A stretch of 46,582 nt of DNA from Deltaproteobacteria bacterium TL4 (GTDB taxonomy: Bacteria; SAR324; NAC60-12). Made by a program: the position numbers and the translations under genes. Below, piece after piece: positions 7,701 to 31,920 of the stretch (position 1 is the first letter of the stretch; each line of letters begins with the position of its first letter). Location of the stretch: the NCBI GenBank assembly GCA_051382335.1, contig JBBCAX010000135.1:1-46582 (forward strand), written 5' to 3'. The notes beneath the pieces were generated by a model. It saw only the letters and a list, made by a program, of their open reading frames with translations, was not told the DNA's origin and ran no database searches.

Positions 7701-7742
7701 TTTTCCTCATGAGATTTGAGCTTTAGCAATCAACCAAAGGCT

Positions 7743-9029: not shown

Positions 9030-9095
9030 CAGACTTCCTTGATATAATAGTGAGGGTTATCCAGTACTTTCCCTTTTTACAAGAGGGATTTTCTA

Positions 9096-12100: not shown

Positions 12101-12325
12101 TTCAAGAACCTCCAAGTGCGAGTCTAAACGGTATTGCCCCTGTTCGTTACTCAATACCAGGGAAGGTGCGGCCTGAAGCCAACTGGAAGATGACGAAACG
12201 AGATAAACAAACACCCCCCATGAAAACAGGACCCGGAATAAAAATCGGGAACATAGCTTTACGCCTGAGGCCTGTTCTTTTCGGAAGGGATTTCTGATGG
12301 AAGAAGGCATATTGTATGATGTCAT
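9194..12325 (-). CDS. 7TMR-DISM membrane sensor with coiled coil, degenerate REC-like and C-terminal ATPase-like domains
   Basis: 7TMR-DISMED2 (FGFTTSVYWIKF, YYLRFES) and 7TM-DISM (GLYYGILLSMVLYNFFIY, LSLGLADRI); C-terminal ELLMNAIYDAP, DPFG, GAGRGL. Confidence 0.75.
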   Translation of the reverse strand: MTSYNMPSSIRNPFRKEQASGVKLCSRFLFRVLFSWGVFVYLVSSSSSWLQAAPSLVLSNEQGQYRLDSHLEVLEDPKGELNIAMVTSPEGGSPFIANEGGVPSFGFTTSVYWIKFTVDNTHTSRTQWILQIDWPLIEYIELYVQKGAQVQQLNRVGMAYPFYTRPLVHRTFLFPLSIDTNSELTYYLRFESEETLQIPLILWSQEKFNEYKALEYAGLGLYYGILLSMVLYNFFIYTATGHKSYLFYVLYISTFGLFTLSQNGLAYQLFWPDYPFFAKWFNLCCIPVLLGWALLFAQHFLLTHRYTPNLHKVMTFGIFIPFGVLAFGIPLGFTGVATLNAVNAFVLTCCLFISGILSWRQGYGPAKYFVLAFISLFIGVIFYILKTLGLITPNILSSNGLQIGSIIEVILLSLGLADRINVLRLEKVKAQAEVLEIHKQAIENLSRLQKSTQEVAASYDMFHTMTHVAEAIIKVLPIKNSAELYISFHETLSDGSGGYAQFQLPIIHSAKGEPLLYLKSVKDLFHTFSEEMPEFAKQLTQQQRTTGSHFNRDLLGIVAWRHDTLLGALELKGIEISSVTADHRESVDMLVQFLSITLENISVTLGLEDKVRRRTKELQNALEAQELVSQNLRKTSQELKQSRESLEQQLIELQASHSKLQDLDSTKDQLLKRLHSLHETDFPILKEHLEYILNNPDTNLGDHTRKAVRTYYDIEESLRPFQSLYLSEQAMQSKRILLTETNRKQQLIAKMALGGTGMELDIASSLEEGRQYLKTQKYDIICTNAELITLARDAIAINPEIKTMFMTSENAPVYLPILEEYPFLSNIVSRNDEDRAFTLKNIFTTVSKLVSNDLFGLEKYLSWGVEVRQHTVNRSATRHEWTEEMENYFTQMGVRRSIVTKCAMIAEELLMNAIYDAPVDAKGTPLYNHLSRTTEIHLKPQEQGKFRYACDGLLVAVSVEDPFGAFDRKTILSYLKSCYEGKAGSLQINKGGAGRGLFQIIETSDLVVFNVKPKVRTEVIAIINIDHDKPKTTQTTSFHYFYV

Positions 12326-12491: not shown

Positions 12492-13493
12492 TTACGGGCG
12501 CAGATACAACTCAGCAAGTTCGTTATAAGCGTCCTTGAGATAGCTTACGAACACTTCAATCTGGGGCAACATGGCTTGACAGGAGGTTATGGTAATTGTC
12601 ATTTTCCCACTATAACTGAAAGCGCAAATCACAGCCCCCATGCCATCATAAATGGAAGAACCAAAATAGATTGACTTTAACTCGCAACCCAGAGCGTATA
12701 ACGGCTTTCGTGGGCCAGGAATATTGGTAGTGGATAAATTAAAGACTGCGGGCAAGTTCAATTCGTGTCTTTGTTGAAAAACGGGAATACCCGTTTCTCC
12801 AAGGAAGGGAGGGAGGATCTGTAACGCGGTCAAGGCCAGTTCAGGAGGAGCCATATTGTAAAGTTCTTTGGCTGAAGTGGTATACTCATGCATTTTTTTC
12901 AAACGTTGTGTAGGATCCTTTTCGGTTGTGGCAAGCTGAACAAAAACTTGAGTGACACGATTTCCCATTTCATAGTTTTCGTGATCTTTTCTGATTGAAA
13001 TCGGAAGAGAGGCCACCAACGGAATAACTGGTAACTCTTGTTTTTCCGCTAAATACCGGTGTAACGCTGCAGAACACAAGGTTAAATAGACATCATTGAT
13101 CGTTATTTTGGGATCAACCGCTTTGCCGATGGCGCGAATTTTAGCCAAAGGCAACTCAACCCCATCCCAAACTCTTGGGAGAGAAACCTGATCGTTAAAA
13201 CAGGTTTTGGGCGCTTGGGGGCTGGTGGGTAAAGACTGAAAGCCTTTTTTATAGATGTGAGTAATGTAATTTTTTGCGTTTTTTGCCAAGTAGGTCAACA
13301 ACTGCCCTAACTGGTTTGGAATATTGGCTGAATTTTTTAAAACTTGATGGAACAGTTCTTCCTGGTTAGGGGCAGGTTTGGGAATCCAGTGGTCTTCAGG
13401 TAAAGGCGAGGGTTCTCGATTCGGTTCAAGAATGATATCCAGAAATTGTGCGCCGGATAAGCCATCCATCACCACGTGATGCACTTTAATCAA
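12492..13493 (-). pseudogene. 5'-truncated wax ester synthase/diacylglycerol acyltransferase (WS/DGAT)
   Basis: Begins directly at the catalytic HHVVMDG motif, normally >100 aa from the N-terminus; has TINDV, GNRV, FNLSTTNIPGP; upstream sequence is an Rpn fragment. Confidence 0.75.
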
Positions 13494-13813
13494 TGCCTTC
13501 GTTTACTTCCATTTGAGTCAGTAAGGATGGCTTGGCTTATTTGACCGTGAAACGCGGTTCGCAGCAGCAGTTGCGCTATTTTGCTTTGGTCTCCCCTTTA
13601 AAATCTCCTAAGCCGTATCCTGACTGATCCATCAAAAAGTGAGTAAAGCGAGGGATAAAAACGTCATTCAAGCCCTCATCTTCTACCAAGTCCAAGAACT
13701 CTGTGGAATGATTCCACGTTGACTTTCCTTGATAAAAAACCACGGGGATAATCGCTTTAAGCCTTTGTTGGTCCGGTGTTTCTTTGAACGAGTTATCCCA
13801 AATCCGGCACAGG

Positions 13814-13918
13814 TATAGTGCTCAAGATAAGTTTTGTCCTGGGAGCGAGGGCGTCCCGCCCTCCGGTGAGGGCAAGATGCCCTCGCTCCCAGGGAAAAAA
13901 CTTTCCTGGACAGCTATA
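13814..13918. mobile_element. MITE family A, copy 3, with TA target-site duplication
   Basis: Removing it restores cacaggtacttgag, colinear with the intact paralog (cacatatatttgag). Confidence 0.9.
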
Positions 13919-13924
13919 CTTGAG

Positions 13925-14047
13925 GGGGTTGGGTCTAACTTCGGCCAGGGGTAGCCTCGGGTTTCGTCCCGAGGAACAATGTGCGCAGTATCCCCTGGGA
14001 CGAAACCCAGGGCTACCGTCAAAATGGCCGAACTTAGAGGCAACCCC
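13925..14047. mobile_element. MITE family B (GGGGTTG...CAACCCC termini, internal GTAG-type palindrome) with 8-bp target-site duplication
   Basis: tacttgag at 13917-13924 and 14048-14055; nested inverted repeats ggtagcc..gggtttcgtccc / gggacgaaaccc..ggctacc. Confidence 0.85.
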
Positions 14048-14158
14048 TACTTGAGCAAACGGAACCGCAGCCATTTCTCAGGAGAGGACTGATGCTCAAA
14101 CAGCAAATAGGGGTATGGATTTTGTCTTGAGTCGCTTTTTTCATGGGAAGGTCTCGTG

Positions 14159-14497: not shown

Positions 14498-15508
14498 CTA
14501 CAATAGTTGCTGTTTTAGTTGTTCAAGCATCGACTCTAATTCCTCCATTGTTTTCGCCATCAACGCTTCTTTTGAGTTCTGAGTTTGCTTAAGCACTAAT
14601 TGAAAAGCTCTAACCTGTCCAATCAAGTCACCTTTCTCCAGTCCTTCTTCTCGTCCTTCTTCTCGTCCTTCTTCTCGTCCTTCTTCTCGTCCTTTTTGCA
14701 GTCCTTTTTGCAGTCCTTTTTGCAGTCCTTTTTGCAGTCCTTCTTCTCTGCCTTCTTTTCTGCCTTCAAGCTTTCCCATGCCATAAGACGATTCCACCAT
14801 ACTTGCCTGATAATGCAAATCATCAACATAAGACTCATAAGTGGCTCTTTCCTCCTCAGGAAGTTTCATAATATCCAATTTGTCTTTTGCTTCTTTGAGT
14901 CCCTTGGCCTGAAATTCCGTTTTGATTTCCTCGTGTTTCAAAAAATAAATCCATTCGTCCAGGGGATCTTTAGCGTGATCATCAAACTGATTCACTTTGA
15001 TCAAATAATATTCAGGATAAATCTCATAAATCTTTTGTTTATGATAAAGTTCCTTTTGACTCTCACTTAATTGAAGCTCATCGCTTTTATGAATTCCCTT
15101 AAATGTCGTGGTTCCCCTATAGACATAATCGGCTCCCTGTCCCAGATCAAAATAAAGGATATTGATCGAAATCACCTTCATGATAGTGGAATAAGGTTCG
15201 GACTCATGAATATGTTCGGTGACGATTCTGGAGGTTCCATATAAGATTCTTTGGAGATAATCCTGTTCTCTTTCGTACTGAACTTCAATGAGAATAATAT
15301 CGCCACGGGAATCTCGAACTTTCAGATCAATTCTGTTAAATTTATCCTTGTCGTGTTTCTTCTCTCCCTCACTTTCCAGAATTTCCAGAATCAGGATCTC
15401 CTCTTTCAAAAGCTCACTCAGAAAGCCTTCCAAAATACTGAAATTCGCTTTGCTTCTTAAAAGGCGTTTCATGGCCCAATCAAAAGTAATCAGCCTTCTT
15501 TTTGCCAT
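14498..15508 (-). CDS. Rpn-family PD-(D/E)XK nuclease/putative transposase (PDDEXK_2-like)
   Basis: FDWAMKRLL, RIDLKV..ILIEVQ, LDEWIYFLK; C-terminal GREEG/GLQKG repeats. Confidence 0.85.
   Translation of the reverse strand: MAKRRLITFDWAMKRLLRSKANFSILEGFLSELLKEEILILEILESEGEKKHDKDKFNRIDLKVRDSRGDIILIEVQYEREQDYLQRILYGTSRIVTEHIHESEPYSTIMKVISINILYFDLGQGADYVYRGTTTFKGIHKSDELQLSESQKELYHKQKIYEIYPEYYLIKVNQFDDHAKDPLDEWIYFLKHEEIKTEFQAKGLKEAKDKLDIMKLPEEERATYESYVDDLHYQASMVESSYGMGKLEGRKEGREEGLQKGLQKGLQKGLQKGREEGREEGREEGREEGLEKGDLIGQVRAFQLVLKQTQNSKEALMAKTMEELESMLEQLKQQLL
14641..14762. repeat. 12-nt coding tandem repeats (GREE and GLQK units)
   Basis: tcgtccttcttc and cagtcctttttg units in tandem. Confidence 0.9.
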
Positions 15509-15708
15509 CAGGTCTCCTACAGGTTAAGGGATTGCTCCTAAAGAATCTCAAACGCGTCAATGCTGCTATTCGCTTAAGAATATCTCCTTTTCAGCCTGGG
15601 AGCAAGACGTATTTTGGTGCTCTGACAGGTCATGCGAAACGATTCCTTGAGGTCTGAGAAAGAGGATGCTTGAAGGGAGAACCTAAAGTGCCTGTCCCCA
15701 TCTCCCTT
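15374..15708. repeat. Direct repeat copy 2 (matches 1..353)
   Basis: Alignment by eye with the window start. Confidence 0.9.
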
Positions 15709-15728
15709 CGTCACTCTTCTTGTACTCG

Positions 15729-16784
15729 TTACAAAAGTTGTTGTTTCAGTTGCTCCAGCATGGACACTAAATCTTCCATTGTTTTTGCCATCAACGCTTC
15801 TTTTGAATTCTGGGCTTGTTTCAGTATTAATTGAAAGGCTCTGACTTGTCCTATTAAATCACCTTTCTCCAAGCCTTCCTGACGTCCTTCCTGACGTCCT
15901 TCCTGACGTCCTTCCTGACGTCCTTTTTGCAGTCCTTTTTGCAGTCCTTTTTGCAGTCCTTCCTGACGTCCTTTTTGCAGTCCTCGTTGTTCCCCTTCTA
16001 TTCGTAGTTGTTCCGCGGCATTCATGATTTTTTCTCCTAATTTTTGTGAGTGCGCTTCTTGCGCGATCGTTTGTTGGACTTCTTGAACCGAAACACCTTC
16101 AATGTTCATTAAGTATATCATGAAAAATATTTCATAATCAATGCCTTCATTTGCTTCCATTTGAGTCAGTAAACGCGCAAAGCGGCTGAGTGCCTTTTTT
16201 ATCTGACCGTGAAATGACGTTCGGAGTAACAGTTGCGCGATTTGGGCTTTAGTCTCCCCTTTAAAATCTGCTAATCCAGATCTTGATTGATCAATCAAAA
16301 AGTGAGCGAATCGCGGAATGAAAACAGCATTCAAGCCATCCTGCTCTACTAAATCCAGGAACTCTGTAGAAGGGGTCCAGACGGACTTCCCCTGATAAAA
16401 AACCGTTGGGATAATGGCTTTTAGCTTTTGTTGATCGGGATGCTCCTTAAACGAGTTATCCCAAATCCGGCACATATATTTGAGTAAACGGAATCTGACC
16501 CATTTATCAGGAGAGGACTGGTGCTCAAACAGCAAATAAACAAGCACTTCCCGTTGGGTGTTTTGGAGCTCAACCTGAAACAACAAATCCGATTCACTGG
16601 CTTGGTATTCCTCATCAATGAAGGCCTTTTCAATCAATCTCAAGGAACTCCAGTCGAGTTTTTCCACCAACTCCGAGGGCAGATAACTCTGAAGAAAACT
16701 CGCGGCTTCCTTGGTATCAGAAAAGACCGTTTTGAAAAGCTTGTCGTGTGGGTTATGAATTGTGTCTTGAGTGGATTTTTTCAT
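15729..16784 (-). CDS. Rpn-family recombination-promoting nuclease (YhgA/Transposase_31-like)
   Basis: HNPHDKLFK, SDLLF, YLLFEHQS, RLLKYM, IIPTVFYQG..W; ATG at 16784 preferred over the track's 16853. Confidence 0.88.
   Translation of the reverse strand: MKKSTQDTIHNPHDKLFKTVFSDTKEAASFLQSYLPSELVEKLDWSSLRLIEKAFIDEEYQASESDLLFQVELQNTQREVLVYLLFEHQSSPDKWVRFRLLKYMCRIWDNSFKEHPDQQKLKAIIPTVFYQGKSVWTPSTEFLDLVEQDGLNAVFIPRFAHFLIDQSRSGLADFKGETKAQIAQLLLRTSFHGQIKKALSRFARLLTQMEANEGIDYEIFFMIYLMNIEGVSVQEVQQTIAQEAHSQKLGEKIMNAAEQLRIEGEQRGLQKGRQEGLQKGLQKGLQKGRQEGRQEGRQEGRQEGLEKGDLIGQVRAFQLILKQAQNSKEALMAKTMEDLVSMLEQLKQQLL
15873..15983. repeat. 12-nt coding tandem repeats (GRQE and GLQK units)
   Basis: ccttcctgacgt and cctttttgcagt units. 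Confidence 0.9.
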
Positions 16785-16908
16785 GAGAAAGTCTCGTCTG
16801 GTTTCGATATCAGGATACCTCAGCAACGTACCTAAACACCACATACCAAACAAGGCAAATATTCCTTAAATAAGGACATTAAAGGAGACGATGTCCTCGT
16901 ATTCCCAA

Positions 16909-16975
16909 GTAGGGTGCCGCTTAAGCGCAGCGAGCGCACCACCGTAGGGTGGCGCTTAAGCGCAGCGAGCGCACC
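16909..16975 (+). repeat. Two tandem GTAG-family REPs
   Basis: gtagggtg(c/g)cgcttaagcgcagcgagcgcacc at 16909-16940 and 16944-16975. Confidence 0.88.
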
Positions 16976-17121
16976 AAAACCTGATTTTATTCGTACCCTC
17001 TTGAAACTCGTTTAAGCCGGGACACCTGATGGTAGGCCGGAACTACGTGTTCGGCAAACTCAACGCTCAGAAAAGCGGGGCCTGTAATCCCCGCCTACCA
17101 ATGTTCCGTTTTAAGGGGGTA

Positions 17122-17424
17122 GCCGTCCAAACACAATGCAAATGATCCGGTAACAACACCCAGGCATTGATCTCAAAAGGATAATTTTCTCTTGTTTTCA
17201 CAATCATAGACCGTAACATCTCCCGAAAAATCGGTTCCGTTAAGAACGGTCTCCGTTGATATGTCACCACGGTAAAAAAGTAGGTATAATGCTCAAGATA
17301 AGTTTTGTCCTGGGAGCGCAGGCGTCCCGCCCGCTTTTGCGGGCAAGATGCCCGCGCTCCCAGGGAAAAAATTTTCCTGGACAGCTATACTTCCCGTTTG
17401 TTTCCATCGACGATAATTCGACAT
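17122..17424 (-). pseudogene. rayT: REP-associated tyrosine transposase (RAYT/TnpA-REP) remnant, MITE-interrupted and 3'-truncated
   Basis: Excising 17285-17389 (keeping one TA) gives MSNYRRWKQTGSTYFFTVVTYQRRPFL...FEINAWVLLPDHLHCVWT with the HUH motif; GGAGAG RBS upstream; flanked by REPs in opposite orientation. Confidence 0.85.
17285..17389. mobile_element. MITE family A, copy 4, inserted at TA in the RAYT gene
   Basis: Same arms as 13814..13918; core variant; removal restores the RAYT reading frame. Confidence 0.9.
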
Positions 17425-17450
17425 ATTTTTGCTCTCCCCAAAGATTTGGC

Positions 17451-17481
17451 GGTGCGCTCGCTGCGCTTAAGCACACCCTAC
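17451..17481 (-). repeat. GTAG-family REP between RAYT and the DGR
   Basis: ggtgcgctcgctgcgcttaagcacaccctac. Confidence 0.85.
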
Positions 17482-17535: not shown

Positions 17536-17676
17536 TCACTGTCCACCTCGGACGCAACGGACATAGTACGTATTAGTCTTATTGCTGCTGTCCACGTAAC
17601 CATTGTAGAAGTACACGTACCACGCATAGCTCGTAAGGTTAGCGTCGGCAGTGGACGACCAATAGTACGACGACTC
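17536..17676 (-). repeat. DGR variable repeat VR1
   Basis: 141-nt match to TR 19483..19623 with 15 mismatches, all at TR adenines (coding strand). Confidence 0.97.
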
Positions 17677-17973
17677 TGTATTGGGAAAATAAGTTGTATT
17701 GATCGCTGGGCTGTAAGTAGAAGTATCCACAATAGATTCAAGTTCACGGTAATGCGGCAGTCGCCAGTCAGTTTTTCCTCCCAAATTCAAGGCTTCACAG
17801 TAATTCAAGGCCGCTTCCCAGGTGCGGGTAACCCCATCATCTTGTTTTTGCCACACTAAATGAGTATTGTTATCTCTGACAGTTTCATTGCCGTTATCCG
17901 TGTATCCCGCATAAACGGGAGTCGTCATTCCCAGCACCAGCATTCCTGTGATCATAATATTTCTGAGTTTCAT
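17536..17973 (-). CDS. DGR target 1: secreted single-domain DUF1566 (Lcl C-terminal, C-type-lectin-like) protein
   Basis: Signal peptide MKLRNIMITGMLVLGMTTPVYA; YTDNG..LVWQK..WEAALNYC..DWRLP..EL..YWSST..YVRCVR; AAGGA RBS before ATG 17973 (track starts at 17988). Confidence 0.9.
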   Translation of the reverse strand: MKLRNIMITGMLVLGMTTPVYAGYTDNGNETVRDNNTHLVWQKQDDGVTRTWEAALNYCEALNLGGKTDWRLPHYRELESIVDTSTYSPAINTTYFPNTESSYYWSSTADANLTSYAWYVYFYNGYVDSSNKTNTYYVRCVRGGQ

Positions 17974-17984
17974 AATTTTTTCCT

Positions 17985-19511
17985 TCATTTAGGTTTATCC
18001 ATAAAAACCATTTCTGTGATCACCCGTTTTTTTAAACCCGGACGATAATATCCTTCTTCTCCCACCACCAACCAGGATAAATTCAGGCTCAACGCCCGTT
18101 GTTTGTATAAACGCAAAAGCTTCAGAGGAAAGCCACATCTCCCTATTTTCCTCACCTTGCAGATTTCCAATTTCAATCCAAACAGTTTTGATACCCTCTC
18201 CGCTTCCTCCTCATAAAACTCACAAAATTTACCTACCTGGAAAAAGATCAGGTAGGAGGAAAAACGTTGTTTAAACCAGCGATACTGGGATAACAGGTTC
18301 AGAGGAACATAGGCAGGTTCGTACAGGGGGATTAATTTTTTGTCATCCCCTACCCGAAAAATCCATCCTAACCAAGAATATTGTTCCCACAAGGATTGAA
18401 TCAGATTCCAGGAATCCGCCTGCTGGAAATGCCCCAGGTACGAAGCCAGCATTTGTCGGAGTTCATTCCTCTGTTCCTGTTTCAGACAGAGATGCAGGTA
18501 TTTCTGCTTCCCTATCCCCTTTTGCTGGATCATTTTCCTTTTTGTCTCCACCACCTTCACATGAAAGTTTTCGACCACTCGGTGTCGTACCAATTTGTAT
18601 TGAGGACGCACGATGTATCCCAAAAAATCGGATCCTTCGCTCACTCGTTTCAGGATTACCCCTGGCTTGATCTGCAATTCCAAACGCTTTAACAGAAACT
18701 CTTCAATGACTTCTTGCCAGTGTAATAATTCTTCACGGTCTTCACTCAGCAGAATAAAATCATCCATATATCGCAGATAAAAACGGCATTTCAACTGATG
18801 TTTTACAAATTGATCAAGTTCATTGAGATACACATTGGCAAAAAACTGGGAGGTTAAGTTTCCAATGGGTAACCCCTTGTTGATTCCCGACTGAAACAAA
18901 GTTTTATGAGGAGGAATCTTTTCCAGTAATCCAGGAACCCCTTTGTAAAAATAATCGCGAGTGCAGTCATGAAAAAGAATCCGCGCTGTCAAGCCCAGTA
19001 ACAAAGGGTCTTCCAACTTTCCTTGAATCAGTTCAAACAATATTCCACGATCAACGCTCATAAAAAATCCTCGAATATCCAGTTGCAGGAACCATCCTGG
19101 AATCCGATTTCCACGGGAAACCCTAGCCATAAAGGACTGAAGACGCTCAACGGCCGCATGGGTTCCCTTGTTTTTACGGCAAGCATAGGAATCAAAAATA
19201 AACTTCGGTTCCCAGATTGCTTCCAGGCGCGGCACCAACAGATGATGCACCACACGGTCACGAAAGTTAGCGGCAAAGACCTCCCTAAGTTTGGGATCAG
19301 TGACTACAAAACACAGAGATCGGGATGGCTCATAAAAGCCTTGTTCAAGGGATTCCTCCAATTGAAACAGATTTCCAAAAAGATCTGCTTCAAATCTTAG
19401 GGTATTGATGGTTCCACGTTTACGTTTGCGGCATGAATAATACGCTTCATACAGCGAACGAAACGAAAATAAACCATCCAAATCACTTTCCACCTCGGAC
19501 GCAACGGACAT
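17985..19511 (-). CDS. DGR reverse transcriptase with C-terminal MutS-domain-I-like extension
   Basis: KLREVFAANFRDRVVHH, SYACRKNKGTHAA, LQLDIRGFF, GLPIGNLTSQFFANVYL, YLRYMDDF, DFLGY; C-terminal LIFFQVGKFCEFYEEEAERVSKLFGL..CGFP; exact start uncertain (overlaps TR). Confidence 0.95.
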   Translation of the reverse strand: MSVASEVESDLDGLFSFRSLYEAYYSCRKRKRGTINTLRFEADLFGNLFQLEESLEQGFYEPSRSLCFVVTDPKLREVFAANFRDRVVHHLLVPRLEAIWEPKFIFDSYACRKNKGTHAAVERLQSFMARVSRGNRIPGWFLQLDIRGFFMSVDRGILFELIQGKLEDPLLLGLTARILFHDCTRDYFYKGVPGLLEKIPPHKTLFQSGINKGLPIGNLTSQFFANVYLNELDQFVKHQLKCRFYLRYMDDFILLSEDREELLHWQEVIEEFLLKRLELQIKPGVILKRVSEGSDFLGYIVRPQYKLVRHRVVENFHVKVVETKRKMIQQKGIGKQKYLHLCLKQEQRNELRQMLASYLGHFQQADSWNLIQSLWEQYSWLGWIFRVGDDKKLIPLYEPAYVPLNLLSQYRWFKQRFSSYLIFFQVGKFCEFYEEEAERVSKLFGLKLEICKVRKIGRCGFPLKLLRLYKQRALSLNLSWLVVGEEGYYRPGLKKRVITEMVFMDKPK

Positions 19512-19623
19512 AGTTCGTATTAGTCTTATTGTTGTTGTTCACGTTACCATTGTTGAAGTTCACGTTCCACGCATTGCTCGTATTGTTAGCGTTGGTAGTG
19601 GACGACCAATAGTTCGACGACTC
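19483..19623 (-). ncRNA. DGR template repeat (TR)
   Basis: Between avd and RT; in VR frame reads ESSNYWSSTTNANNTSNAWNVNFNNGNVNNNNKTNTNYVRCVRGGK* with 16 AAC/AAT codons. Confidence 0.96.
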
Positions 19624-19627
19624 ATTT

Positions 19628-19724
19628 CGTCCATTCACTTGTTCGGGCTTTCGCCCCACCTTCTTCCGATCCCGAAAGTACGAAAAAATGTATGATTATC
19701 CCCTAAATCAGGGGGGAATGGACG
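19628..19724 (-). ncRNA. Putative structured 5' leader of the DGR TR-RNA
   Basis: 9-bp closing pair cgtccattc(19628-36)/gaatggacg(19716-24) enclosing GGGC-GAAA-GCCC (19645-56) and cccct/agggg (19700-14) hairpins. Confidence 0.55.
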
Positions 19725-19754
19725 CACAGTGATCTTAAGCACGCTCATCAGCCA

Positions 19755-20126
19755 TCAAGTGACTGGTGATTCCGGCTTTTTCCCTTTTTGGCTTTTCAGC
19801 CATCCCTCACTCTGCTTACAAATATCGGTTATCAGGTGAGCGGCCTGTTGAAATTGAGCAAAGCTCTTAAACGCCTTGATCTCCTTGCCAATCAGCAAAG
19901 TGGTCTTCATGGCTTCACTTTGGTTTCTTAATTCAGTCAAGCTGGCATATTTATCCTGTTCCGAATTTGCCTTGATGACACTAGTCACCAATTGACGTGA
20001 AAGTTCACGCATATCCTGACCAATGGAGTATTTATGATAGCGAGCGAAATCCCTGACCATGTTTTCAATCAAAACAGCCAATTCCATGGTTTTTTTATAA
20101 ATCGGTAAATTTTCGTAATAAGCCAT
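19755..20126 (-). CDS. avd: DGR accessory variability determinant (Avd-like four-helix bundle)
   Basis: 123 aa, basic; LPIYKK..F.RYHKYSIG..R pattern and terminal GW; position upstream of TR-RT. Confidence 0.85.
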   Translation of the reverse strand: MAYYENLPIYKKTMELAVLIENMVRDFARYHKYSIGQDMRELSRQLVTSVIKANSEQDKYASLTELRNQSEAMKTTLLIGKEIKAFKSFAQFQQAAHLITDICKQSEGWLKSQKGKKPESPVT

Positions 20127-20128
20127 AT

Positions 20129-20443
20129 TTATTTGACAAGCCTGATGATTTCAGTAATGTCGCGTTCCTTGTCAGCAGCTTGTAAAGCAATTGCCACGGA
20201 GTGCCCGCCACGCAGCAGTTTACCCACATAGGCATCCAAACCTGACAGAGGAAAACCTCCAATCACTATGGGTAATTGAATCGTACCTGCCATATTTAGT
20301 TTTAGTCCCGTAATCGCGGAAACGCTATGTGCGTCTTCGCCTATGACTTGCATAAAGACTCCTACCTGCATCAATAAGATACAGTCTTGAACACTTTCCT
20401 TGAGTTCCTGATAACGTTTTGCTAATTTTTCAGAAAATACCAT
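20129..20443 (-). CDS. Standalone MutS domain I-like (MSL-type) DGR accessory protein
   Basis: DCILLMQVGVFMQVIGEDAHSVSAITGLKL..GGFPLSGLDAYVGKLLRGGHSVAIALQ matches the MutS N-terminal pattern; GAAGGAGG RBS before ATG 20443. Confidence 0.8.
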   Translation of the reverse strand: MVFSEKLAKRYQELKESVQDCILLMQVGVFMQVIGEDAHSVSAITGLKLNMAGTIQLPIVIGGFPLSGLDAYVGKLLRGGHSVAIALQAADKERDITEIIRLVK

Positions 20444-20455
20444 TATTCCTCCTTC

Positions 20456-20486
20456 AAAAAAAAAATCGTCCGCCCCAAGGGCTGAC
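20456..20486 (-). terminator. Hairpin plus U-tract downstream of VR2 (intrinsic terminator and/or DGR target-recognition hairpin)
   Basis: Coding strand GTCAGCCC-TTG-GGGCGGAC (1 mismatch), then GA and T10. Confidence 0.55.
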
Positions 20487-20513
20487 AAATAATCAAATAA
20501 TCAAATACCCAAG

Positions 20514-20653
20514 TCACTGTCCACCTCGGACGCAACGGACATAGTACGTACTAGTCTTATTGCTGTAGTTCACGCGACCATAGCCGAAGTACACGTACCA
20601 CGCATAGCTCGTATCGTTAGCGTAGGTAGTGGACGACCAATAGTACGACGACT
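20514..20653 (-). repeat. DGR variable repeat VR2
   Basis: 140-nt match to TR with 16 mismatches, all at TR adenines. Confidence 0.97.
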
Positions 20654-23600
20654 TTGTATTGAGAAAATAAGTTGTATTGATCGCTGGATTATACCTTCCA
20701 ACATTTACAATGCTTATGAGTTGACGACGATTGGGCAACGTCCAATCGGTGTAGCCTCCCAAGGACAGATTATCACAATATGTTCCGGCGGCTGACCAGG
20801 TATAAGTACTGTTGTTATCTTCTTTTTGCCACATCAGCCCTGTTACATTATCCGTGATGGTGCTGTTGCCATTGTCAGTGTAAGAAGGGGTGTTTTGCGT
20901 ATAATCGTGGTCTTCTCCAAAAGTCGTGGTATAGGAAGTTGTTTGTCCGGTATCTGGTATCGCCTGATAATCGTTGATACCGACACTGGCGGCACTGGAA
21001 CTTTCTCCCCAATTATTCATGCTGAACGCCAGCAGAGAGGTAGCCAGGGAGGGCAAAACCGTATTACTGGAGAAGGTGTAAGTATAAGTGGCACTGCCAT
21101 TGGCTGTAATTTGGGTGATGGCAGTTTCGCTTTGTTTGGTCGTGCTGCTGCTGCCCCAATAAAGCGTGTAATGGGAGATATTTGACTCATCACTGGCTTT
21201 GCTGATCGTCACATCGCCTCCGACTCTTCCCCAGCGGCCATCGGTATCTGTAAAAGCCACACTGGTTGCTGTAACTGTGGGGGCAGCATCATTATCAGCG
21301 TTGGTCACACTCACCAAACTTGCGGCAAGCGAGCCATAACCGCTGGTATCACTTGTGCTGGAAAGACTCACCGAAATAGTGTAGGTGATATTGCCATCCT
21401 GTACCGCGTCATCCACGCCTGTGACGATCACCGTCTGATTGGTGTTCCAGTCTGAAGCGGTATAGGTGAGACTGGCGGGCGAAACCGTGCCTTCCGCTGT
21501 TTTGCTCGAAACCACGCTCAACACAACATTGGCCGTGGGTTGGCTATTAAGTTTGACAGTAAAAGTAGCAGTTCCACCAGCTTCAGTCGTGTTGCCGCTG
21601 ATGGCGCTGATGACGAAACCTGGTGAATCATTATCTGTATTGGTGACGGCAACATCATCAGGATTCAACGAGGCATAACCGCTGGTGTCCAGGGTATTGC
21701 CAGTATTGAGGGTGAGTTGAACCGTGTAGCTTTGATTGCCATCGGCAATGTCGTCGTTTACGCCTGTGACTGTGATGGTTTGGTTAGCGTTCCAGTTGGT
21801 GGAGGAGAAAGTTATGCTGGATGGCGAGACAGTTCCTTCGGTCACATCCGATGTGACCACGTCAATCACGACATTGGCTGTGGGTTCACTAGTCAGTTTC
21901 ACTGTGAAAGTGGCCGTTCCTCCCGCTTCGCTTGTGTTGCCGCTGATGACGCTGATGATAAAGCCTGCGGATTCTCCCAGATCGGTATTGGTGACGGCAA
22001 CATCGTCAGGATTGAGTGCTGAATAACCGCTGATATCGGTTGTGGCTTTGGTATTGATGGTGAGTTGGATAGTAAAACTTTGGTTGCCATCGGCAATGTC
22101 GTCATTGACGCCTGTGACTGTGATGGTTTGGTTAGCATTCCAGTTGGTGGAAGTGAAGGTCAGAGATGCTGTTGAAACGGTTCCTTCAGTGGTATCAGAC
22201 GTTGCCACGTCAATTACGACATTGCCCGTAGGTTCGTACATAAGTTTGACAGTAAATGACGCGCTCGAACCATCTTCCGCTGTGTTTCCACTGATGGCGC
22301 TAATAGTGAACCCGGGGTGGTCGTCGTCAATGTTGGTCACAGAGACAGTAGAGGGGGGCAACAAGGCATAACCACTATTATCCAGAGTGCCGACCGTGTT
22401 GAGGGTGAGTTGGATGGTGTAGCTTTGGTTGCCATCAATGACATCATCATTAACTCCGGTTACGGTAACCGTCTGATTGGCATTCCAGTTATCTGAGGTA
22501 AAGATCAGGGAGGAGGGAGAAACGGAGCCTTCAGAAGGATCAGTGCTAACGATAGCCACCACAACATCGCCTGTAGGCTCGGTATTGATTTTAATGGTAA
22601 AGGTGGCGGTTCCGCCTTTTTCGGTGGTCAGGCCGCTGAGCGCGCTGATTCTGAAGCCTGGAAGTTCGTTGTCCTCGTTGATCACGGTAACACTTTCAAG
22701 ACTTAACTGATGGTAGCCGGGATCCTGACTCGTGGTGTTTCCAAAAAGGATCGAAACCCTTTGATTGCCGTCCTCTTCCGAATCGTCGATGCCAGTGAGG
22801 GTGACGGTTTGAGGAGCGTTCCAATTCAGCGGAGTGAAGGTCAGGGTTTGCGGAAAGACTGTGACTTCCGTCGTATCACCGCTGGAAAGGGAAAGGGTAA
22901 CTTCCGCGGTAGGCGCGACATTCAAGCGCACCGTGAAGGTCGCGGTTTCTCCAAATTCATTGGTATTGCCACTGACCGCGCTCACGGTGATCCCGGGTGT
23001 TTCATTATCAATGTTTTCAACCTGGACATCCTCAGGATCCATACCCTTGTAAACGGTATCCTCACTAACCGCGGCGGACAGGACGATGTGATAACGCTGA
23101 TTGCCGTCCGCGGCGGCGTCATCCACACCTTGAACCGTCGCTGTTTGCGGGGTTTCCCAATTGTCAGGAGTGAAACGGAGTTCCTTTTGGAGGATGACAC
23201 CTTCAGCGGCGTTATCACTGGCTAAAGGCACAATTACATCCGCAGTCGGCTGGCTGTGAATCTGAACCGTGAAGGAGGCGGTTTGACCGGATTCTGAGGT
23301 TTTTCCGCTGATAGGGCCAACCGTAAACCCAGGTGAATCGTCATCCACATTGACGACTTTGACATCGTCAGGATTGAGCGTTTGATAATCAGCGTCTTTG
23401 GTAACGACTGTTCCCAGAATCACAGCGTAGCGTTTTTCTCCATCCGCGACGGAGTCATCAACACCAGTGACCATGACGATTTGTTGGGTGCTCCAGTTTT
23501 CCGCGGTGAAGGTCAATTGGGAAGTGGAAACCGTGCCCTCGGTCACCTTGCTGCTGGAAACCGGGAGGACAACGTCATGAGTTGGGATTTGTTTGAGTTT

Positions 23601-23786
23601 GACCGTAAACGTGGCATAAGTTCCGGTTTCCGAGGTTTTGTTGCTGATTGGACTGATGTCAAAGCCCAACGCTCCTGGAATGGGCGTGGGTTCCTGATCA
23701 AAATACTCGTCCTGTAAGCAGGAAGGGATGACTCCCAGCATGAAGAGGAGGAGGAAAAAGAGGTTTGTGAATTGTTGGTTTTTCAT
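20514..23786 (-). CDS. DGR target 2: putative surface lipoprotein with seven Calx-beta-like repeats, a beta-sandwich linker and a C-terminal DUF1566 domain
   Basis: Signal/lipobox-like LLLFMLGVIPS-C; 7x GF.IS.ISG.T.E.G.TATFTVKL..NW...QT.TVTGV.D..DGNQ; IPDTGQ..YTDNG..LMWQK..YWSST..YVRCVRGGQ. Confidence 0.9.
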   Translation of the reverse strand: MKNQQFTNLFFLLLFMLGVIPSCLQDEYFDQEPTPIPGALGFDISPISNKTSETGTYATFTVKLKQIPTHDVVLPVSSSKVTEGTVSTSQLTFTAENWSTQQIVMVTGVDDSVADGEKRYAVILGTVVTKDADYQTLNPDDVKVVNVDDDSPGFTVGPISGKTSESGQTASFTVQIHSQPTADVIVPLASDNAAEGVILQKELRFTPDNWETPQTATVQGVDDAAADGNQRYHIVLSAAVSEDTVYKGMDPEDVQVENIDNETPGITVSAVSGNTNEFGETATFTVRLNVAPTAEVTLSLSSGDTTEVTVFPQTLTFTPLNWNAPQTVTLTGIDDSEEDGNQRVSILFGNTTSQDPGYHQLSLESVTVINEDNELPGFRISALSGLTTEKGGTATFTIKINTEPTGDVVVAIVSTDPSEGSVSPSSLIFTSDNWNANQTVTVTGVNDDVIDGNQSYTIQLTLNTVGTLDNSGYALLPPSTVSVTNIDDDHPGFTISAISGNTAEDGSSASFTVKLMYEPTGNVVIDVATSDTTEGTVSTASLTFTSTNWNANQTITVTGVNDDIADGNQSFTIQLTINTKATTDISGYSALNPDDVAVTNTDLGESAGFIISVISGNTSEAGGTATFTVKLTSEPTANVVIDVVTSDVTEGTVSPSSITFSSTNWNANQTITVTGVNDDIADGNQSYTVQLTLNTGNTLDTSGYASLNPDDVAVTNTDNDSPGFVISAISGNTTEAGGTATFTVKLNSQPTANVVLSVVSSKTAEGTVSPASLTYTASDWNTNQTVIVTGVDDAVQDGNITYTISVSLSSTSDTSGYGSLAASLVSVTNADNDAAPTVTATSVAFTDTDGRWGRVGGDVTISKASDESNISHYTLYWGSSSTTKQSETAITQITANGSATYTYTFSSNTVLPSLATSLLAFSMNNWGESSSAASVGINDYQAIPDTGQTTSYTTTFGEDHDYTQNTPSYTDNGNSTITDNVTGLMWQKEDNNSTYTWSAAGTYCDNLSLGGYTDWTLPNRRQLISIVNVGRYNPAINTTYFLNTKSSYYWSSTTYANDTSYAWYVYFGYGRVNYSNKTSTYYVRCVRGGQ

Positions 23787-24386: not shown

Positions 24387-24457
24387 TTTTTCTCCTTATT
24401 TAGAATGATTCTTTCCTCAGGGAACAAGGAAATTCAAAAATTCCATCGGGTTTTAGT

Positions 24458-24670
24458 GGTGCGCTCGCTGCGCTTAAGCGGCACCCTACTTTTGGTGCGC
24501 TCGCTGCGCTTAAGCGGCACCCTACTTTTGGTGCGCTCGCTGCGCTTAAGCGGCACTCTACTTGGTGCGCTCGCTGCGCTTAAGCGGCACCCTACGGCGG
24601 TGCGCTCGCTGCGCTTAAGCGGCACCCTACCTTTTTATGGTGCGCTCGCTGCGCTTAAGTGGCACCCTCC
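24458..24670 (-). repeat. Tandem array of six 32-nt GTAG-family REPs
   Basis: Units start at 24458, 24494, 24530, 24564, 24599, 24639; spacers 4, 4, 2, 3, 8 nt. Confidence 0.92.
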
Positions 24671-26857
24671 TTACCATTTTTTGTTAAAGGAGAGTTGGAC
24701 TTTGCCTTGGGGGTGAACATCCCAGTGCCAGGAAATGGCGGAGGATGAAGGGGGTTCGGGTTCATCCCAATAAAGCCAGCCGGTCAAGGCGGCGAGTCCG
24801 AGGGTTAGACCTAAATATCCCTGTGTTTGTTCCTTCATTGTGGCAATTTCAGCCATTTTCTCATCTTCTTGCGTTCGATAGGCTTGAGCGTCATGGAGCG
24901 TTTTCGCGGTCTTGATCTTGTCACTGAGTTGTTGTCTCTCGGTGTTCGCGTTTTCCACCGCGGTGACTGTGGCATAAAGCAAACCGGTTGAGATCAGCGT
25001 TACCCCCAACGAACTTCGCCACTTCCATTTCCAGCTTTGGCGGGCTTGGTAATAGTCGGTGAGTTCCAAGTGAATTTCCTGAGAGAAGGTTTCTCCCGGT
25101 TTCAAAACAAGGGCTTGCTTTTGTTCCACATATTTATGGCTGGAGTGGGTGACGTAGAGTTCATAGGTGCCTGACTCCACCTCCAAAGCAAAAATTCCCC
25201 GATCAGGAGAGTTATCAGTTTTGTTCCAGGATTCCTTACCGATGAGATTGACCACAAAATGACCATCTTCGTCCTCAACTAAAGCATCCCGAATTATTGT
25301 AAGTTTCAATGAAGAGGGTCTCAGTTCCATTTTGATGTCAATGAGCGTTTGCTGGTTTGGCAGGATTTCAAAAGATTTTTCAACAGGAACGTACTCCTGA
25401 TGAGTCACTTTGAGGGTGTAAGGGCCGATGGGAAGTTGCTTTTCCTCAACAGGTAAGAATAAGGTTTGAGTCGCGGGGACGTAAGTTCCTCCTGTTAAGG
25501 TAATGACCGATCCTTGAGGACAGCCTCGCAGGGTCAAGCGTCCTTGAATGGGAGCCAAACGGGGAGCTAACGAAACATCCTCAGTGGCAACCTGAAGCTG
25601 TTTTTGGAAAACCTCAAACCCTTCTTTTTCTATTTGAATCTGATGAGGACCTTTGGTGGTTTGCAGCGTGAGTGGAGTGTTTCCCACGACTTGTTGATCG
25701 ACCATGATTTTTGCGCCACCAGGTGTGCTGCCGATGATCAGTTCCGGGATTTTGACCAGGGTCACCTTGTATTTCGTTGTTTTTCCTCCCTGCACCGTTA
25801 GGGTTTTTTCGAGTGTTTCATATTTGGTTTTTTGAATTTTTAATTGATGTGTTCCTTCAGTCACTTGAAGCTTAACCGGGGTTTCTCCTTTGGCAATTCC
25901 CTCCAGAAAGACATGCGCCTGAGCGGGGAGAGTCGTAATTTCCAGGGTTCCAAACCGCTTCAGTTTAGCCTCCAGAAGCGTGTTTTTTATTTGAGGATCG
26001 ACTTCAAGGTTTTGGGTGAAAGGGGCATAGCCTGTTAACCGGATTTCTACCAGATGCCGCCCCGAGGTCAGCTTGAGATCCACCGGAGCTTTTCCAACCG
26101 GTTTTTGATCGACTGAAACTTCAGCGTTATAGGGAGTACTTGTGATTAAGACATTGTAAAGCAACGGAGCAAGCGTCAAATCCAGACGCGTCAACTCGGA
26201 AGAGGTGAGCTTGAAAGTTTGAGTGATACCGAGATTTTCATGACGGAGATCGAGTGTGTGTTCTCCGTAAGGGATGGCTTTTAACAAGGCGGGTGTTTTT
26301 TGTTCCAGCACAATCCCATCCAGGGTAATTTCCGCTTCCGGCGGGGTGGAGGTGAGGAACACTTGTCCTGTCTCCTCAGACGTTGGTTGAGGGGCGTTCT
26401 CGCCTATAACTTTCGCCACCAACTCGGAAATTTTTCCGTTGAGTTGGAAGGTATTGCATTTTTGGCAGTAGTAGGTTTTTACATTCTTGTCTTCCAGACC
26501 GATGCGGGTGACGGTCAATTGGGTATCGTCGCCTTCCCGAATGATCTGCAAACGGAACAAATTTTCCACTTGCAGGATTTCCTGAACCCGTCGAATACAT
26601 TGATCTTCAGTACATTCCTCCGCGTCCAGGGTTTTAAAGGCTTCATCCTGGGCTTGCTCAAATTGTTTTTCGGAAACCAGATTAAACTGGTCGGCCAAAC
26701 GCTCCTGAAACGTATTGAATAAAATGCCTTGCTGCCCCGCGGAAATATCGCCCACCACCGCTAAGGGAAAGAGGGCCGCTTGTTCTTTTTGAGCATAAAC
26801 CGGGTGGGCCAACAGGCTGGATACAAGCACTAAACTGAAATATTTTAAGACGTTCAT
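24671..26857 (-). CDS. Exported multi-PEGA-domain protein with C-terminal hydrophobic segments
   Basis: Signal peptide; repeated STPPEAEITLDG/STPYNAEVSVD/TLPAQAHVFLEG/STPGGAKIMVD..G.TP..L..G.H..GY/F. Confidence 0.85.
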   Translation of the reverse strand: MNVLKYFSLVLVSSLLAHPVYAQKEQAALFPLAVVGDISAGQQGILFNTFQERLADQFNLVSEKQFEQAQDEAFKTLDAEECTEDQCIRRVQEILQVENLFRLQIIREGDDTQLTVTRIGLEDKNVKTYYCQKCNTFQLNGKISELVAKVIGENAPQPTSEETGQVFLTSTPPEAEITLDGIVLEQKTPALLKAIPYGEHTLDLRHENLGITQTFKLTSSELTRLDLTLAPLLYNVLITSTPYNAEVSVDQKPVGKAPVDLKLTSGRHLVEIRLTGYAPFTQNLEVDPQIKNTLLEAKLKRFGTLEITTLPAQAHVFLEGIAKGETPVKLQVTEGTHQLKIQKTKYETLEKTLTVQGGKTTKYKVTLVKIPELIIGSTPGGAKIMVDQQVVGNTPLTLQTTKGPHQIQIEKEGFEVFQKQLQVATEDVSLAPRLAPIQGRLTLRGCPQGSVITLTGGTYVPATQTLFLPVEEKQLPIGPYTLKVTHQEYVPVEKSFEILPNQQTLIDIKMELRPSSLKLTIIRDALVEDEDGHFVVNLIGKESWNKTDNSPDRGIFALEVESGTYELYVTHSSHKYVEQKQALVLKPGETFSQEIHLELTDYYQARQSWKWKWRSSLGVTLISTGLLYATVTAVENANTERQQLSDKIKTAKTLHDAQAYRTQEDEKMAEIATMKEQTQGYLGLTLGLAALTGWLYWDEPEPPSSSAISWHWDVHPQGKVQLSFNKKW

Positions 26858-26966: not shown

Positions 26967-27070
26967 TATAGATGTTCAGAAAAGTTTTGTCCTGGGAGTG
27001 AGGGCGTCCCGCCCTCCGGTGAGGGCAAGATGCCCTCACTCCCAGGACAAAACTTTCCTTGAGCACTATA
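26967..27070. mobile_element. MITE family A, copy 5
   Basis: Near-identical to 3089 and 9096 copies. Confidence 0.88.
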
Positions 27071-27172
27071 TAGATGTTCAGAAATTAAATTGCGGTAGAG
27101 CAGGCATCCCTGCCTGCACAAACAGGCACGGATGCCTATTCTACCGTGAAATTATTTAAATGCATGTCTGTA
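27069..27172. mobile_element. MITE-like element with family A/C-like termini and GTAG palindromic core
   Basis: tatagatgttca... / ...atttaaatgcatgtctgta; core gtagagcaggcatcc...ggatgcctattctac. Confidence 0.65.
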
Positions 27173-27675: not shown

Positions 27676-28806
27676 TTAGTAATATTGACGGTACAATGAG
27701 GCAAACTTTTTGAAGTGGCGATGGGTTCGTTCAAAGAAATATTTATAGGAAGCGCAAAAATGATTATGTCCCTGGTCCTGTGGATCATGGAGGCGATCTT
27801 TAATACAGCCGCCATAACATAAACGTAGCCATTGACATTGCTGACATTCCCTCGCGTAAGCGGCTTTTTGCGCACCAAAAGCCAGGTGGGCTGGAGACTG
27901 GAAGGCTTCTTTTAACGAAATTTCATGTAAATTTCCCAGTTTTGTATTTTCTGAGACAAGAAAATCACAAGAATATAAATCCCCATTATGCTCAACCACT
28001 AAATAATCGTTGCAAACCTTGTGCATGGTGCAATGATCAGGAAGCCTGCCAATATAGGCGGCAAGCAGAGAGTCAAAAAATCGAATGGAGGTTTTTTGTT
28101 TCAGTTTTTTAAAATCAAAGTCCTTAATCCAGCAATTCATCAGAGCACAGAGGAATTGAGCATAGTCTTGAGCTGGGACTGAATAGGAGGCGGCAATCCC
28201 TGTATTGTGAAGATCACGCTCCACCACAGGACTGAATTGCATAAACCAGAATCCATGATCCGCAAAAAATTCATAGATTGCCTTTGGATATTTCACTGAA
28301 TAATCCGTAACACTCGCTAAAACATTCACGGGGACTCCACTTTTAAGTAGCAACTGAGCGTTATTAAAGACAGCTTGAAACGTCCCCTGGCCTTTATGAT
28401 CTTTGCGGTAATGATCATGAATATGCTGAGGCCCGTCCAAGGAAATGCCAACCAGAAAGTTTTCTTGACGCAGAAAGAGAGTCCAGGCTTCATTCAATAA
28501 AATTCCGTTGGTTTGCAAAGCATTTTCGTAGGATCTGTTTTGGGCATAATGCTTCTGCAACTGGATCACGTTTTTGAAAAAATCCAGGCCAAGTATGGTG
28601 GGTTCTCCGCCCTGCCAGATAAAGGTCGGCGAACTGGTGCAATCAAACATCCCTTTGATCAATTTTTCCAGAGTGGACTCCTGCATACGGTGTGTTGAAG
28701 GAGCCCCCTCATACAGACGATGCTTATCCAGGTAAAAACAGTAATCACACTGAATGTTACAAAAGGAACCAATCGGTTTGATTAAAACACTTCGCAACTC
28801 AGGCAT
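27676..28806 (-). CDS. Anaerobic sulfatase-maturating enzyme (radical SAM/SPASM)
   Basis: IKPIGSFCNIQCDYCFY, WQGGEPT, LQTNG, GISLDGP, VEHNGDLYSCD, CQQC..LCYGGC..NHFC. Confidence 0.88.
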   Translation of the reverse strand: MPELRSVLIKPIGSFCNIQCDYCFYLDKHRLYEGAPSTHRMQESTLEKLIKGMFDCTSSPTFIWQGGEPTILGLDFFKNVIQLQKHYAQNRSYENALQTNGILLNEAWTLFLRQENFLVGISLDGPQHIHDHYRKDHKGQGTFQAVFNNAQLLLKSGVPVNVLASVTDYSVKYPKAIYEFFADHGFWFMQFSPVVERDLHNTGIAASYSVPAQDYAQFLCALMNCWIKDFDFKKLKQKTSIRFFDSLLAAYIGRLPDHCTMHKVCNDYLVVEHNGDLYSCDFLVSENTKLGNLHEISLKEAFQSPAHLAFGAQKAAYARECQQCQWLRLCYGGCIKDRLHDPQDQGHNHFCASYKYFFERTHRHFKKFASLYRQYY

Positions 28807-28829
28807 GATCCGACTTTCCTTCAAGAAAA

Positions 28830-29315
28830 TTATTTTTTAAAGACAAAAACCACTTCAAATTTTTGCTTTAGCTTTGCGTGATAATAAGTTCCTATCAGGA
28901 GATTTCGTTGCGGTTCGTAATCGAGAGTATATGAAGACCCTTGATAGTCAACATCCTGAAATTTGATGAATACTTTTTCCCTGGAAGATTCTTGAAAAAT
29001 TTTTGCTTCGGCAATGTGGATTGAGCGCGGATTGTAATAGGCCGTTTCTAAGTGACCCTCTGGATGAACCTTTTTAATCTCTAAAACATAGCGTCCATCT
29101 GTACGGAACCATCGACCGACAAGTTTTTCCTTATCAATTGCTGCGGGGTATGTGACAGGCGGTTGGGCAGGGGGAGCTTTTCTTCTTACAACCTCCTCCA
29201 CGGTTTTTTTTGAAGGGGTTGAGACCGTTTTCAACTTGGAAAAATTCAGGACAATCGCACCCACCGTCATGATCAAGGCAACACCGAGTACAATCCCTAT
29301 AAGCGGATGTTTCAT
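28830..29315 (-). CDS. Hypothetical membrane-anchored protein
   Basis: N-terminal hydrophobic helix; LVGRWFRTDGRY..AYYNP..Y.GSSYTL; GGAG RBS before ATG 29315. Confidence 0.7.
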   Translation of the reverse strand: MKHPLIGIVLGVALIMTVGAIVLNFSKLKTVSTPSKKTVEEVVRRKAPPAQPPVTYPAAIDKEKLVGRWFRTDGRYVLEIKKVHPEGHLETAYYNPRSIHIAEAKIFQESSREKVFIKFQDVDYQGSSYTLDYEPQRNLLIGTYYHAKLKQKFEVVFVFKK

Positions 29316-30289: not shown

Positions 30290-30304
30290 AGGAAAAACAG
30301 GAAA

Positions 30305-30568: not shown

Positions 30569-30581
30569 GAAGGCTTTTGCT

Positions 30582-31898: not shown

Positions 31899-31920
31899 AA
31901 TTATTGGCGACACAAATCCT

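Follow-up and report, generated by a model that had tools for sequence, protein, structure and literature searches.

Why should the single template of a diversity-generating retroelement (DGR) match two proteins of very unequal build? This question is raised by a contig of Deltaproteobacteria bacterium TL4 (SAR324; GenBank assembly GCA_051382335.1, contig JBBCAX010000135.1, here C135), which was analysed over its whole length of 46,582 nucleotides and is termed the window in the following; the assembly that holds it comprises 6.59 Mb in 445 contigs and is rated 100% complete. The DGR in the window is complete: on the minus strand, a large target (target 2), the accessory genes MSL and Avd, the template repeat (TR), the reverse transcriptase (RT) and a small target (target 1) succeed each other, the TR lying directly upstream of the RT. 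The gaps between these six elements are short or replaced by overlaps (the RT start overlaps the TR 3' end, the target 1 start the RT stop), which suggests a single operon. A YxDD-type RT beside a TR, mismatches confined to adenines, an Avd gene and a variable region (VR) at the end of a C-type-lectin (CLec)-fold domain were all found. A previous, sequence-only reading of the locus had regarded the two targets as the same binding head in two formats, a tethered adhesin and a soluble decoy or scavenger. According to the present analysis, target 1 is a likely partner chain of target 2, because relatives often fuse the two domain types: with moderate confidence, we regard the small target as the second chain of a heterodimeric A+B head on the tip of the stalk, both chains being diversified, and not as a decoy.

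Two targets with different heads

Target 2 was confirmed as a protein of 1090 aa with seven Calx-beta-like repeats and a terminal DUF1566 domain (pfam07603, i.e. Lcl_C, PF07603; available text of PMC11162425), the repeat evidence (unit length ~113-115 aa) and the Pfam evidence (Calx-beta 58.4 bits, cut-off 27) being in agreement; its architecture resembles that of a stalked adhesin. An eighth module and an arm in front of the head had been overlooked (see Table 1); within this arm, each of the residues P, D, T, G, Q, G, D and Y is conserved in 76-82 of 84 fused relatives. The lipobox-like signal postulated for target 2 is plausible, but its VIPS-C23 motif is non-canonical. Paralogues share such a Cys: in 11 of 28 stalk-family open reading frames of the genome, a hydrophobic stretch is followed by a Cys at one of the positions 20-26, the others being fragments or having Cys-less leaders. 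No collagen family was matched in target 2 by the Pfam scan, the stalk being Calx-beta-like, and for the eighth module no family name was found, all atlas matches staying below 0.9.

Target 1 consists of a leader and an Lcl_C domain alone, as had been described, and comprises 150 aa from the first ATG or 145 aa from the second (at 17973, with AAGGA upstream of it); the leader is hydrophobic and ends V-Y-A. The coordinates, lengths and VR peptides given previously for both targets were correct. Judged from their leaders and from the near-invariant Cys pair of Lcl_C domains, which likely forms a disulfide, both target proteins look exported. The match of both VRs to one TR was likewise borne out: all 14 mismatches of VR1 and all 15 of VR2 fall on TR adenines (hypergeometric P 6e-8 and 2e-8; comparison over TR positions 2-130 with 44 adenines among 129 positions), and the two VR peptides differ from each other in 10 of 45 residues. 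By simple arithmetic, the 16 AAY codons of the TR permit 15^16, i.e. ~7e18, sequences per chain.

The idea that the same binding head is present twice had to be rejected: outside the VR, 29 of 76 core residues differ between the targets (47 are common), a 26-aa arm is present in target 2 only, the head of target 1 follows directly after the signal peptide, and the two domains represent two Lcl_C/DUF1566 subtypes, hereafter A (target 2) and B (target 1). The tethered/secreted display proposed earlier is retained with respect to the leaders and the stalked-adhesin build; a secreted duplicate of the adhesin head that serves as decoy or scavenger is not supported.

Subtypes A and B and their ordered fusion

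When proteins of 30-598 aa were searched for relatives of the target-2 head, 2,960 matches were obtained; in the best 120, classified by presence of the arm, 107 A-B fusions, nine BB, one AA and three proteins with three domains were counted, whereby only the A-then-B order is informative and 107/120 is no population frequency, since ranking by bit score prefers two-domain proteins. The median gap between the domain matches in these 120 was 7 aa. Fused Lcl_C tandems are also present in the same genome, three on a protein of contig C34 and one on C38. The C34 protein (50805-56336, ~1,843 aa, lipoprotein-like leader) is encoded directly downstream of a sister cassette (see below), and each of its tandems comes after an Ig-like module.

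Hidden Markov models of the subtypes, built from the cores alone with arm and VR excluded, correctly assigned 51/51 first and 49/51 second domains of held-out fusions; with these models, target 2 was placed on the A side (+17.4 bits) and 81 of 85 small homologues on the B side. Target 1 possesses E58, L61 and E65, three of the four strongest B-diagnostic residues. In a quick tree of 90 cores and 77 columns (26 of the 102 fusions plus split pairs; branches mostly unstarred and of weak support), target 1 was placed within a group of 40 rows that contained 39 B, target 2 in a group of 29 A, and the subtype label changed six times as compared with ~30 times after shuffling; the fused protein and the split pair of one relative genome were sisters in both halves. 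Judged from these comparisons of sequence, A and B are real Lcl_C/DUF1566 subtypes that are distinct outside arm and VR. In the fusions, hypervariability is found at the same AAY-equivalent positions of both halves (3.4 bits versus 1.3-1.5 elsewhere), and these columns contain few of the residues E, K, Q, M and W (5.6% versus 13-18% at variable core columns), which AAY-derived codons cannot encode.

A and B as separate genes

The same order recurs where A and B are encoded separately. Among 160 loci gathered with the RT alignment, 76 of which carry a non-TR Lcl_C domain, same-strand targets flank the RT on both sides in 19; hosts of such pairs include Nitrospinota, Desulfobacterota, Campylobacterota and Proteobacteria. 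The downstream target consists of signal peptide and armless domain (type B) in 15 of these 19 loci (the leaders of two of the 15 were assigned by eye), whereas the upstream target is armed ('TGQ...G[QE]D/DDG', type A) in all 12 loci in which its start is on the contig; it is also the more A-like partner in nine of 11 scored pairs. In four of the 15 loci (L015, L031, L042, L129), the B chain continues beyond the domain for another 358-991 aa at its C-terminus, and in L015 the A chain, a secreted protein of 229 aa, is the small one of the pair. In consequence, being small and soluble is not a conserved feature of B, and the idea that small size is the point was discarded because of these long B chains.

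Matches to PF07603 were present in 31 of 88 genomes of the phylum, and 20 regions were taken from relatives, 14 for two adjacent matches and six for a lone small match. An armed A gene (core score +3.4 to +21.7) followed by a signal-peptide B gene (-7.6 to -18.7) was revealed in 12 of the 14, core scores being concordant; the two leftover regions were cut by a contig end or contained two leaderless domains. One of the 12 is a full DGR in the layout of the window, while 11 have no intact RT, three of the latter with RT or MSL remnants between the A and B genes. On this sequence evidence, the pair appears to outlive the mutagenic core.

These observations bear on the alternative closest to the earlier proposal, i.e. 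that the small target acts on its own as a binder, secreted or periplasmic (as a decoy, a scavenger or a soluble bridge), and shares a transcript with the tethered adhesin without being bound to it. Target 1 has indeed a signal peptide and no anchor, lone B genes occur, its core is B-like to a weak degree, and about half of the DUF1566-class targets are short single domains according to the available part of Wu et al. 2018 (PMC5758913). An unbound binder would, however, account neither for the ordered fusion of A and B nor for the maintenance of A/B pairs next to no intact RT, nor for loci in which B is extended or A is the small chain; moreover, a decoy should copy the binding surface of the adhesin, yet the two VRs diverge. 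We therefore regard this alternative as unlikely, albeit as the strongest competitor.

Several observations weigh against a paired head, in addition to the ranking bias and the weak tree branches mentioned above. The core score of target 1 is only -2.0 bits on the B side, that of the small C34 target +0.4, and the B-typical Asn at position 79 is absent from target 1. Of the 19 RT-flanked loci, four are exceptions (two with armed downstream targets, two without signal peptides), and two of the 11 scored pairs (L031, L129) have core scores opposite to the expected order. The small genes stood alone in 6/6 of the lone-match regions of relatives, with core scores of -4 to +2.5; lone B-type genes also exist in this genome (C358, C405), and the TR-matching targets of C187, C53 and C172 are armless, and the short stretch available downstream of them shows no B gene. 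Finally, the fusion model described below has a covalent linker, and side-by-side VR faces are not deducible from it.

Predicted structure of the heads

For the target-2 head, the AlphaFold2 model (predicted local distance difference test, pLDDT, 90.4; predicted template modelling score, pTM, 0.80; the arm blocks being least certain with 58 and 74) predicts a CLec fold. Its best structural match is the C-terminal domain of Lcl (8q4e; Z 13.8, root-mean-square deviation (rmsd) 2.4 Å, 112 aligned residues), further matches being Bd2740, InvE, TvpA (2y3c, Z 8.8) and Mtd (Z 8.1). A phmmer search of target 1 against the PDB gave no match, and the profile search matched Lcl alone. In the C-terminal strands, AAY positions alternate with other residues, and the connecting loops are filled with them; this sequence pattern fits a location on one face.

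A natural A-B fusion from a relative was modelled with pLDDT 93.6 and pTM 0.89 (arm blocks 77 and 83). A pTM that high in two equal domains implies a fixed orientation; according to this model, A and B are predicted to pack rigidly as a 1:1 unit. The arm seems to be more confidently placed when B is attached; since the fusion and the lone-A model have different first sequences, this comparison is only suggestive. No solved chain was found that closely matches the A-B arrangement, the nearest two-domain matches having an rmsd of 6-7 Å, which is no proof of newness.

Alternatively, A and B might cooperate outside a stable 1:1 heterodimer, either in mixed or homo-oligomers (Lcl-like trimers) or as two independent avidity sites for the same ligand. 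That the nearest solved structure, the Lcl C-terminal domain, is a homotrimer (PMC11162425, available text) and that an armed-armed pair (L027) and a three-domain protein (L244) exist would be compatible with such an arrangement, but position-specific subtype residues together with an A-only arm imply an asymmetric interface, and the rigid 1:1 packing predicted for the fusion is at variance with it as well; we consider it improbable. Least probable is that the small target arose as a by-product when targets were duplicated, or that it serves as a spare VR cassette for fusion and gene conversion, with no role linked to target 2: many degenerate Lcl_C copies, some with internal stops, are present in the genome, and target number shifts quickly among DGRs (Wu et al. 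2018, PMC5758913, available part), but 67 of 120 near-length homologues have an intact frame plus signal peptide, and position and subtype are fixed across phyla.

Proposed mode of action

For the heterodimeric A+B head, the following scheme is proposed. By the established DGR mechanism, RT and Avd copy the TR RNA with adenine errors, and the cDNA replaces each VR. Target 2 would be lipidated (a lipid anchor is predicted) and shown at the surface on its stalk; target 1 would be exported by Sec and, after export, be held non-covalently by the A head, probably via the arm. The split into two genes might be explained by the fact that each half then has its own 3'-terminal VR and homing signal, the 3' end being the usual VR position owing to cis-acting elements (PMC8144416, in the part available). 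Each chain could vary at 16 AAY codons, and pairing would multiply the two repertoires; cells, phage or particles are plausible ligands.

A further-reaching proposal, put forward tentatively and with less conviction than the pairing itself, is that of a widespread bacterial two-chain variable receptor, in which both variable faces, rewritten independently from one TR, form one composite site. If this were true, it would represent a functional parallel to heavy/light-chain pairing, chain mixing among the A and B targets of a genome would add combinatorial diversity, and matured pairs would later become permanent once the retroelement core is lost or the two genes fuse.

Template, homing and further targets in the genome

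The TR of the window is the sole TR-like copy of its family in the assembly. An ungapped genome scan revealed seven VRs with 0-1 non-adenine mismatches of 85 sites to this TR (two in the window, two on C34, one each on C187, C53 and C172), whereas thirteen more VR-like copies carry 11-27 non-adenine mismatches; the window TR therefore likely also serves the five VRs elsewhere. A tract of the TTTGATTAT type follows all seven VRs and is altered in the TR; a hairpin is present downstream of VR2, of the VR of the small C34 target and of the VRs on C187 and C53, with none clear after VR1.

The sister cassette (C34 57480-63785) has the same gene order as the window and an RT of ~55% identity. The last part of Avd, the TR and the first part of the RT are absent from it: after residue ~71 of Avd the sequence continues, out of frame, at residue ~72 of the RT, and this explains the missing TR; the deletion at the Avd/RT junction may be an assembly error. 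Both C34 VRs match the window TR at all 85 non-adenine sites. When third codon positions of the C135 and C34 targets were compared, 39/39 were identical at non-adenine VR sites as opposed to 17-24 of 39-47 in the cores, which fits a rewriting of the C34 VRs in trans from the C135 TR; trans homing has been described for the Thiohalocapsa DGR (PMC10907252, available text). A second intact TR for the C34 cassette was considered and rejected, since the assembly scan gave a single low-adenine-mismatch copy. TRs of another type adjoin the remaining RTs of this genome (C153, C133, C208): at least seven TR-like sequences belong to a second, FGE-like type (C153, C133, C156, C58, C207, C387, C208), and the VR on C153 exhibits 22 mismatches, all at adenines. 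The genome is unusually rich in DGRs.

A paralogue of target 2 (C116 7353-13661) combines the same kind of leader and stalk, with 16 repeats, with an FGE-like head; from this sequence comparison, heads appear to be exchanged on a common stalk among paralogues.

Table 1. Positions of the DGR elements and target domains within the window.
Feature	Position	Strand	Evidence or remark
Target 1 (chain B): signal peptide and B-type Lcl_C	17536..17988	-	Pfam Lcl_C E 4.9e-40
VR1	17536..17676	-	14/14 mismatches at TR adenines, TR positions 2-130
DGR reverse transcriptase, YMDD, C-terminal MutS_I domain	17985..19511	-	RVT_1 E 3.4e-17 (Pfam) and MutS_I
TR, 16 AAY codons	19483..19623	-	
Avd accessory gene (Pfam bAvd)	19755..20126	-	PF22296 49.3 bits, cut-off 40
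MSL accessory gene (MutS domain I)	20129..20488	-	Pfam PF01624 E 3.7e-13
Imperfect GC-rich hairpin after TTTGATTAT-repeat tract, downstream of VR2	20467..20487	-	possible homing element
Target 2 (chain A), 1090 aa: leader, 7 repeats, eighth module, arm, A-type Lcl_C head with VR2	20514..23786	-	
VR2	20514..20654	-	15/15 mismatches at TR adenines, TR positions 2-130
A-type Lcl_C/DUF1566 domain, C-type lectin fold	20517..20882	-	Pfam Lcl_C E 1.9e-36; predicted fold
A-type arm, 26 residues (943-968), 'PDTGQ…GEDxDY'	20883..20960	-	conservation among fused relatives
Eighth module, ~107 aa (residues ~836-942)	20961..21281	-	recurs in other surface proteins of the genome
Seven Calx-beta-like repeats (residues ~41-833), Thr/Ser/Asp-rich stalk	21288..23666	-	
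Leader ending Cys23 (VIPS-C)	23718..23786	-	predicted lipoprotein signal, non-canonical Pro at -2

The Avd assignment is based on the Pfam model, the NCBIfam Avd model giving 38.2 bits, below its cut-off of 80; a promoter/terminator scan of the window remained at chance level.

Neighbouring genes

A PEGA-repeat protein is encoded upstream of target 2 (24671-26857, minus strand), separated from it by a repeat cluster and a pair of PIN-type genes. The C-terminal part of this protein contains a hydrophobic hairpin, and its last strand has Trp as the final residue. Its look-alikes in the atlas include CsgG/PEGA/DUF5683 clusters. Homologues precede surface proteins with a C-terminal Lcl_C or FGE-like head on C116, C135, C140, C172, C186 and C53 (pieces), and two more copies are located at contig ends. 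The PEGA-repeat protein is a candidate for a dedicated display or export partner.

Palindromic REP/MITE-like repeats of two families are dispersed over the window, the first in tandem clusters (352-394, 16905-16979, 17445-17472, 24449-24672), the second as a hairpin of ~100 nt (3089-3207, 9095-9213, 13814-13932, 17285-17403, 26967-27085); each family has one copy immediately downstream of target 1. Adjacent genes of the PD-(D/E)XK and YhgA-like transposase families, which have repeat tails of 12 nt, occupy 14498-16853, near-copies being present at 1-300 (95%) and around 13487-14157. Genes for radical SAM, sulfotransferase, chorismate-lyase-like, AMP-binding and hydroxylase-sulfotransferase proteins are clustered at 27676-36931, possibly for the biosynthesis of a sulfated compound. 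A signalling operon on the minus strand (5037-12325) encodes a 7TM-DISM sensor, a REC-cNMP-PAS protein and a PAS-cNMP-Hpt-HATPase kinase.

Comparison with known systems

Neither the DGR class nor long-plus-short targets nor trans activity is new, and the observation made in the sequence-only reading is known in outline: membrane-anchored adhesin-like DGR targets (PMC8144416) as well as long-plus-short targets and trans action (PMC10907252) are described in the available parts of these papers. In the literature examined, as far as its text was available, the variable proteins of DGRs figure as single chains or homo-oligomers, and no explanation is offered for what a second, short target is for; paired DUF1566 subtypes or heterodimeric DGR targets were not found in the non-subscription literature (titles and beginnings of abstracts; supplements of Wu et al. 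2018 and Dore et al. 2024 excepted). If A and B pair, the common two-target layout would gain a mechanical explanation, prokaryotes a combinatorial layer of receptor diversity, and the many small "signal peptide + DUF1566" genes of uncultured bacteria a role; with two domains of ~15 kDa, the claim is directly testable. Without pairing, the window would be an ordinary member of a published DGR class.

This class is category 'd' of Wu et al. 2018 (PMC5758913), which the available part characterizes by CLec2, DUF1566, the MSL accessory gene and an RT-MutS_I fusion. The element of the window is a member with MSL and RT-MutS_I: it shares the DUF1566 VR domain, Avd plus MSL, the RT with MutS_I extension, and two non-adjacent targets, one short and one stalked, as in the short and Ig-stalked targets of that category; the A/B subtypes, the arm and the pairing or fusion of targets proposed here are not part of the category as described there. 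Like the window, the Thiohalocapsa PB-PSB1/clade 5A DGRs (Dore et al. 2024, PMC10907252, available text) combine a short CLec-only target with a long one. Clade 5A targets are mostly cytoplasmic sensors beside MoxR ATPases or effector domains, whereas both targets here have export signals, and neither MoxR ATPase nor effector-domain families were detected among the 34 window proteins scanned, neighbours on both sides included.

Lipoproteins with a C-terminal diversified CLec domain comparable to target 2 are Legionella LdtA, the example of the DUF1566 class (PMC5758913, available part), and Treponema TvpA (2y3c); a stalk of seven repeats and a target of a second subtype distinguish the present system from both as far as they are described, a partner chain not being mentioned there. 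Legionella Lcl (8q4e; Rehman et al. 2024, PMC11162425, available text) is likewise a stalk-plus-head adhesin with a PF07603 head, but has a collagen stalk and forms a homotrimer that binds glycosaminoglycans; the A-type arm (25 aa) is without counterpart in the Lcl alignment (model range 25-147). A DGR-diversified CLec tip on a multi-protein surface structure is also found in the type V pilus tip adhesins of Bacteroides (PMC11601372, in the text available): there, separate pilins serve as anchor and stalk for one variable tip protein, whereas two variable chains are proposed here.

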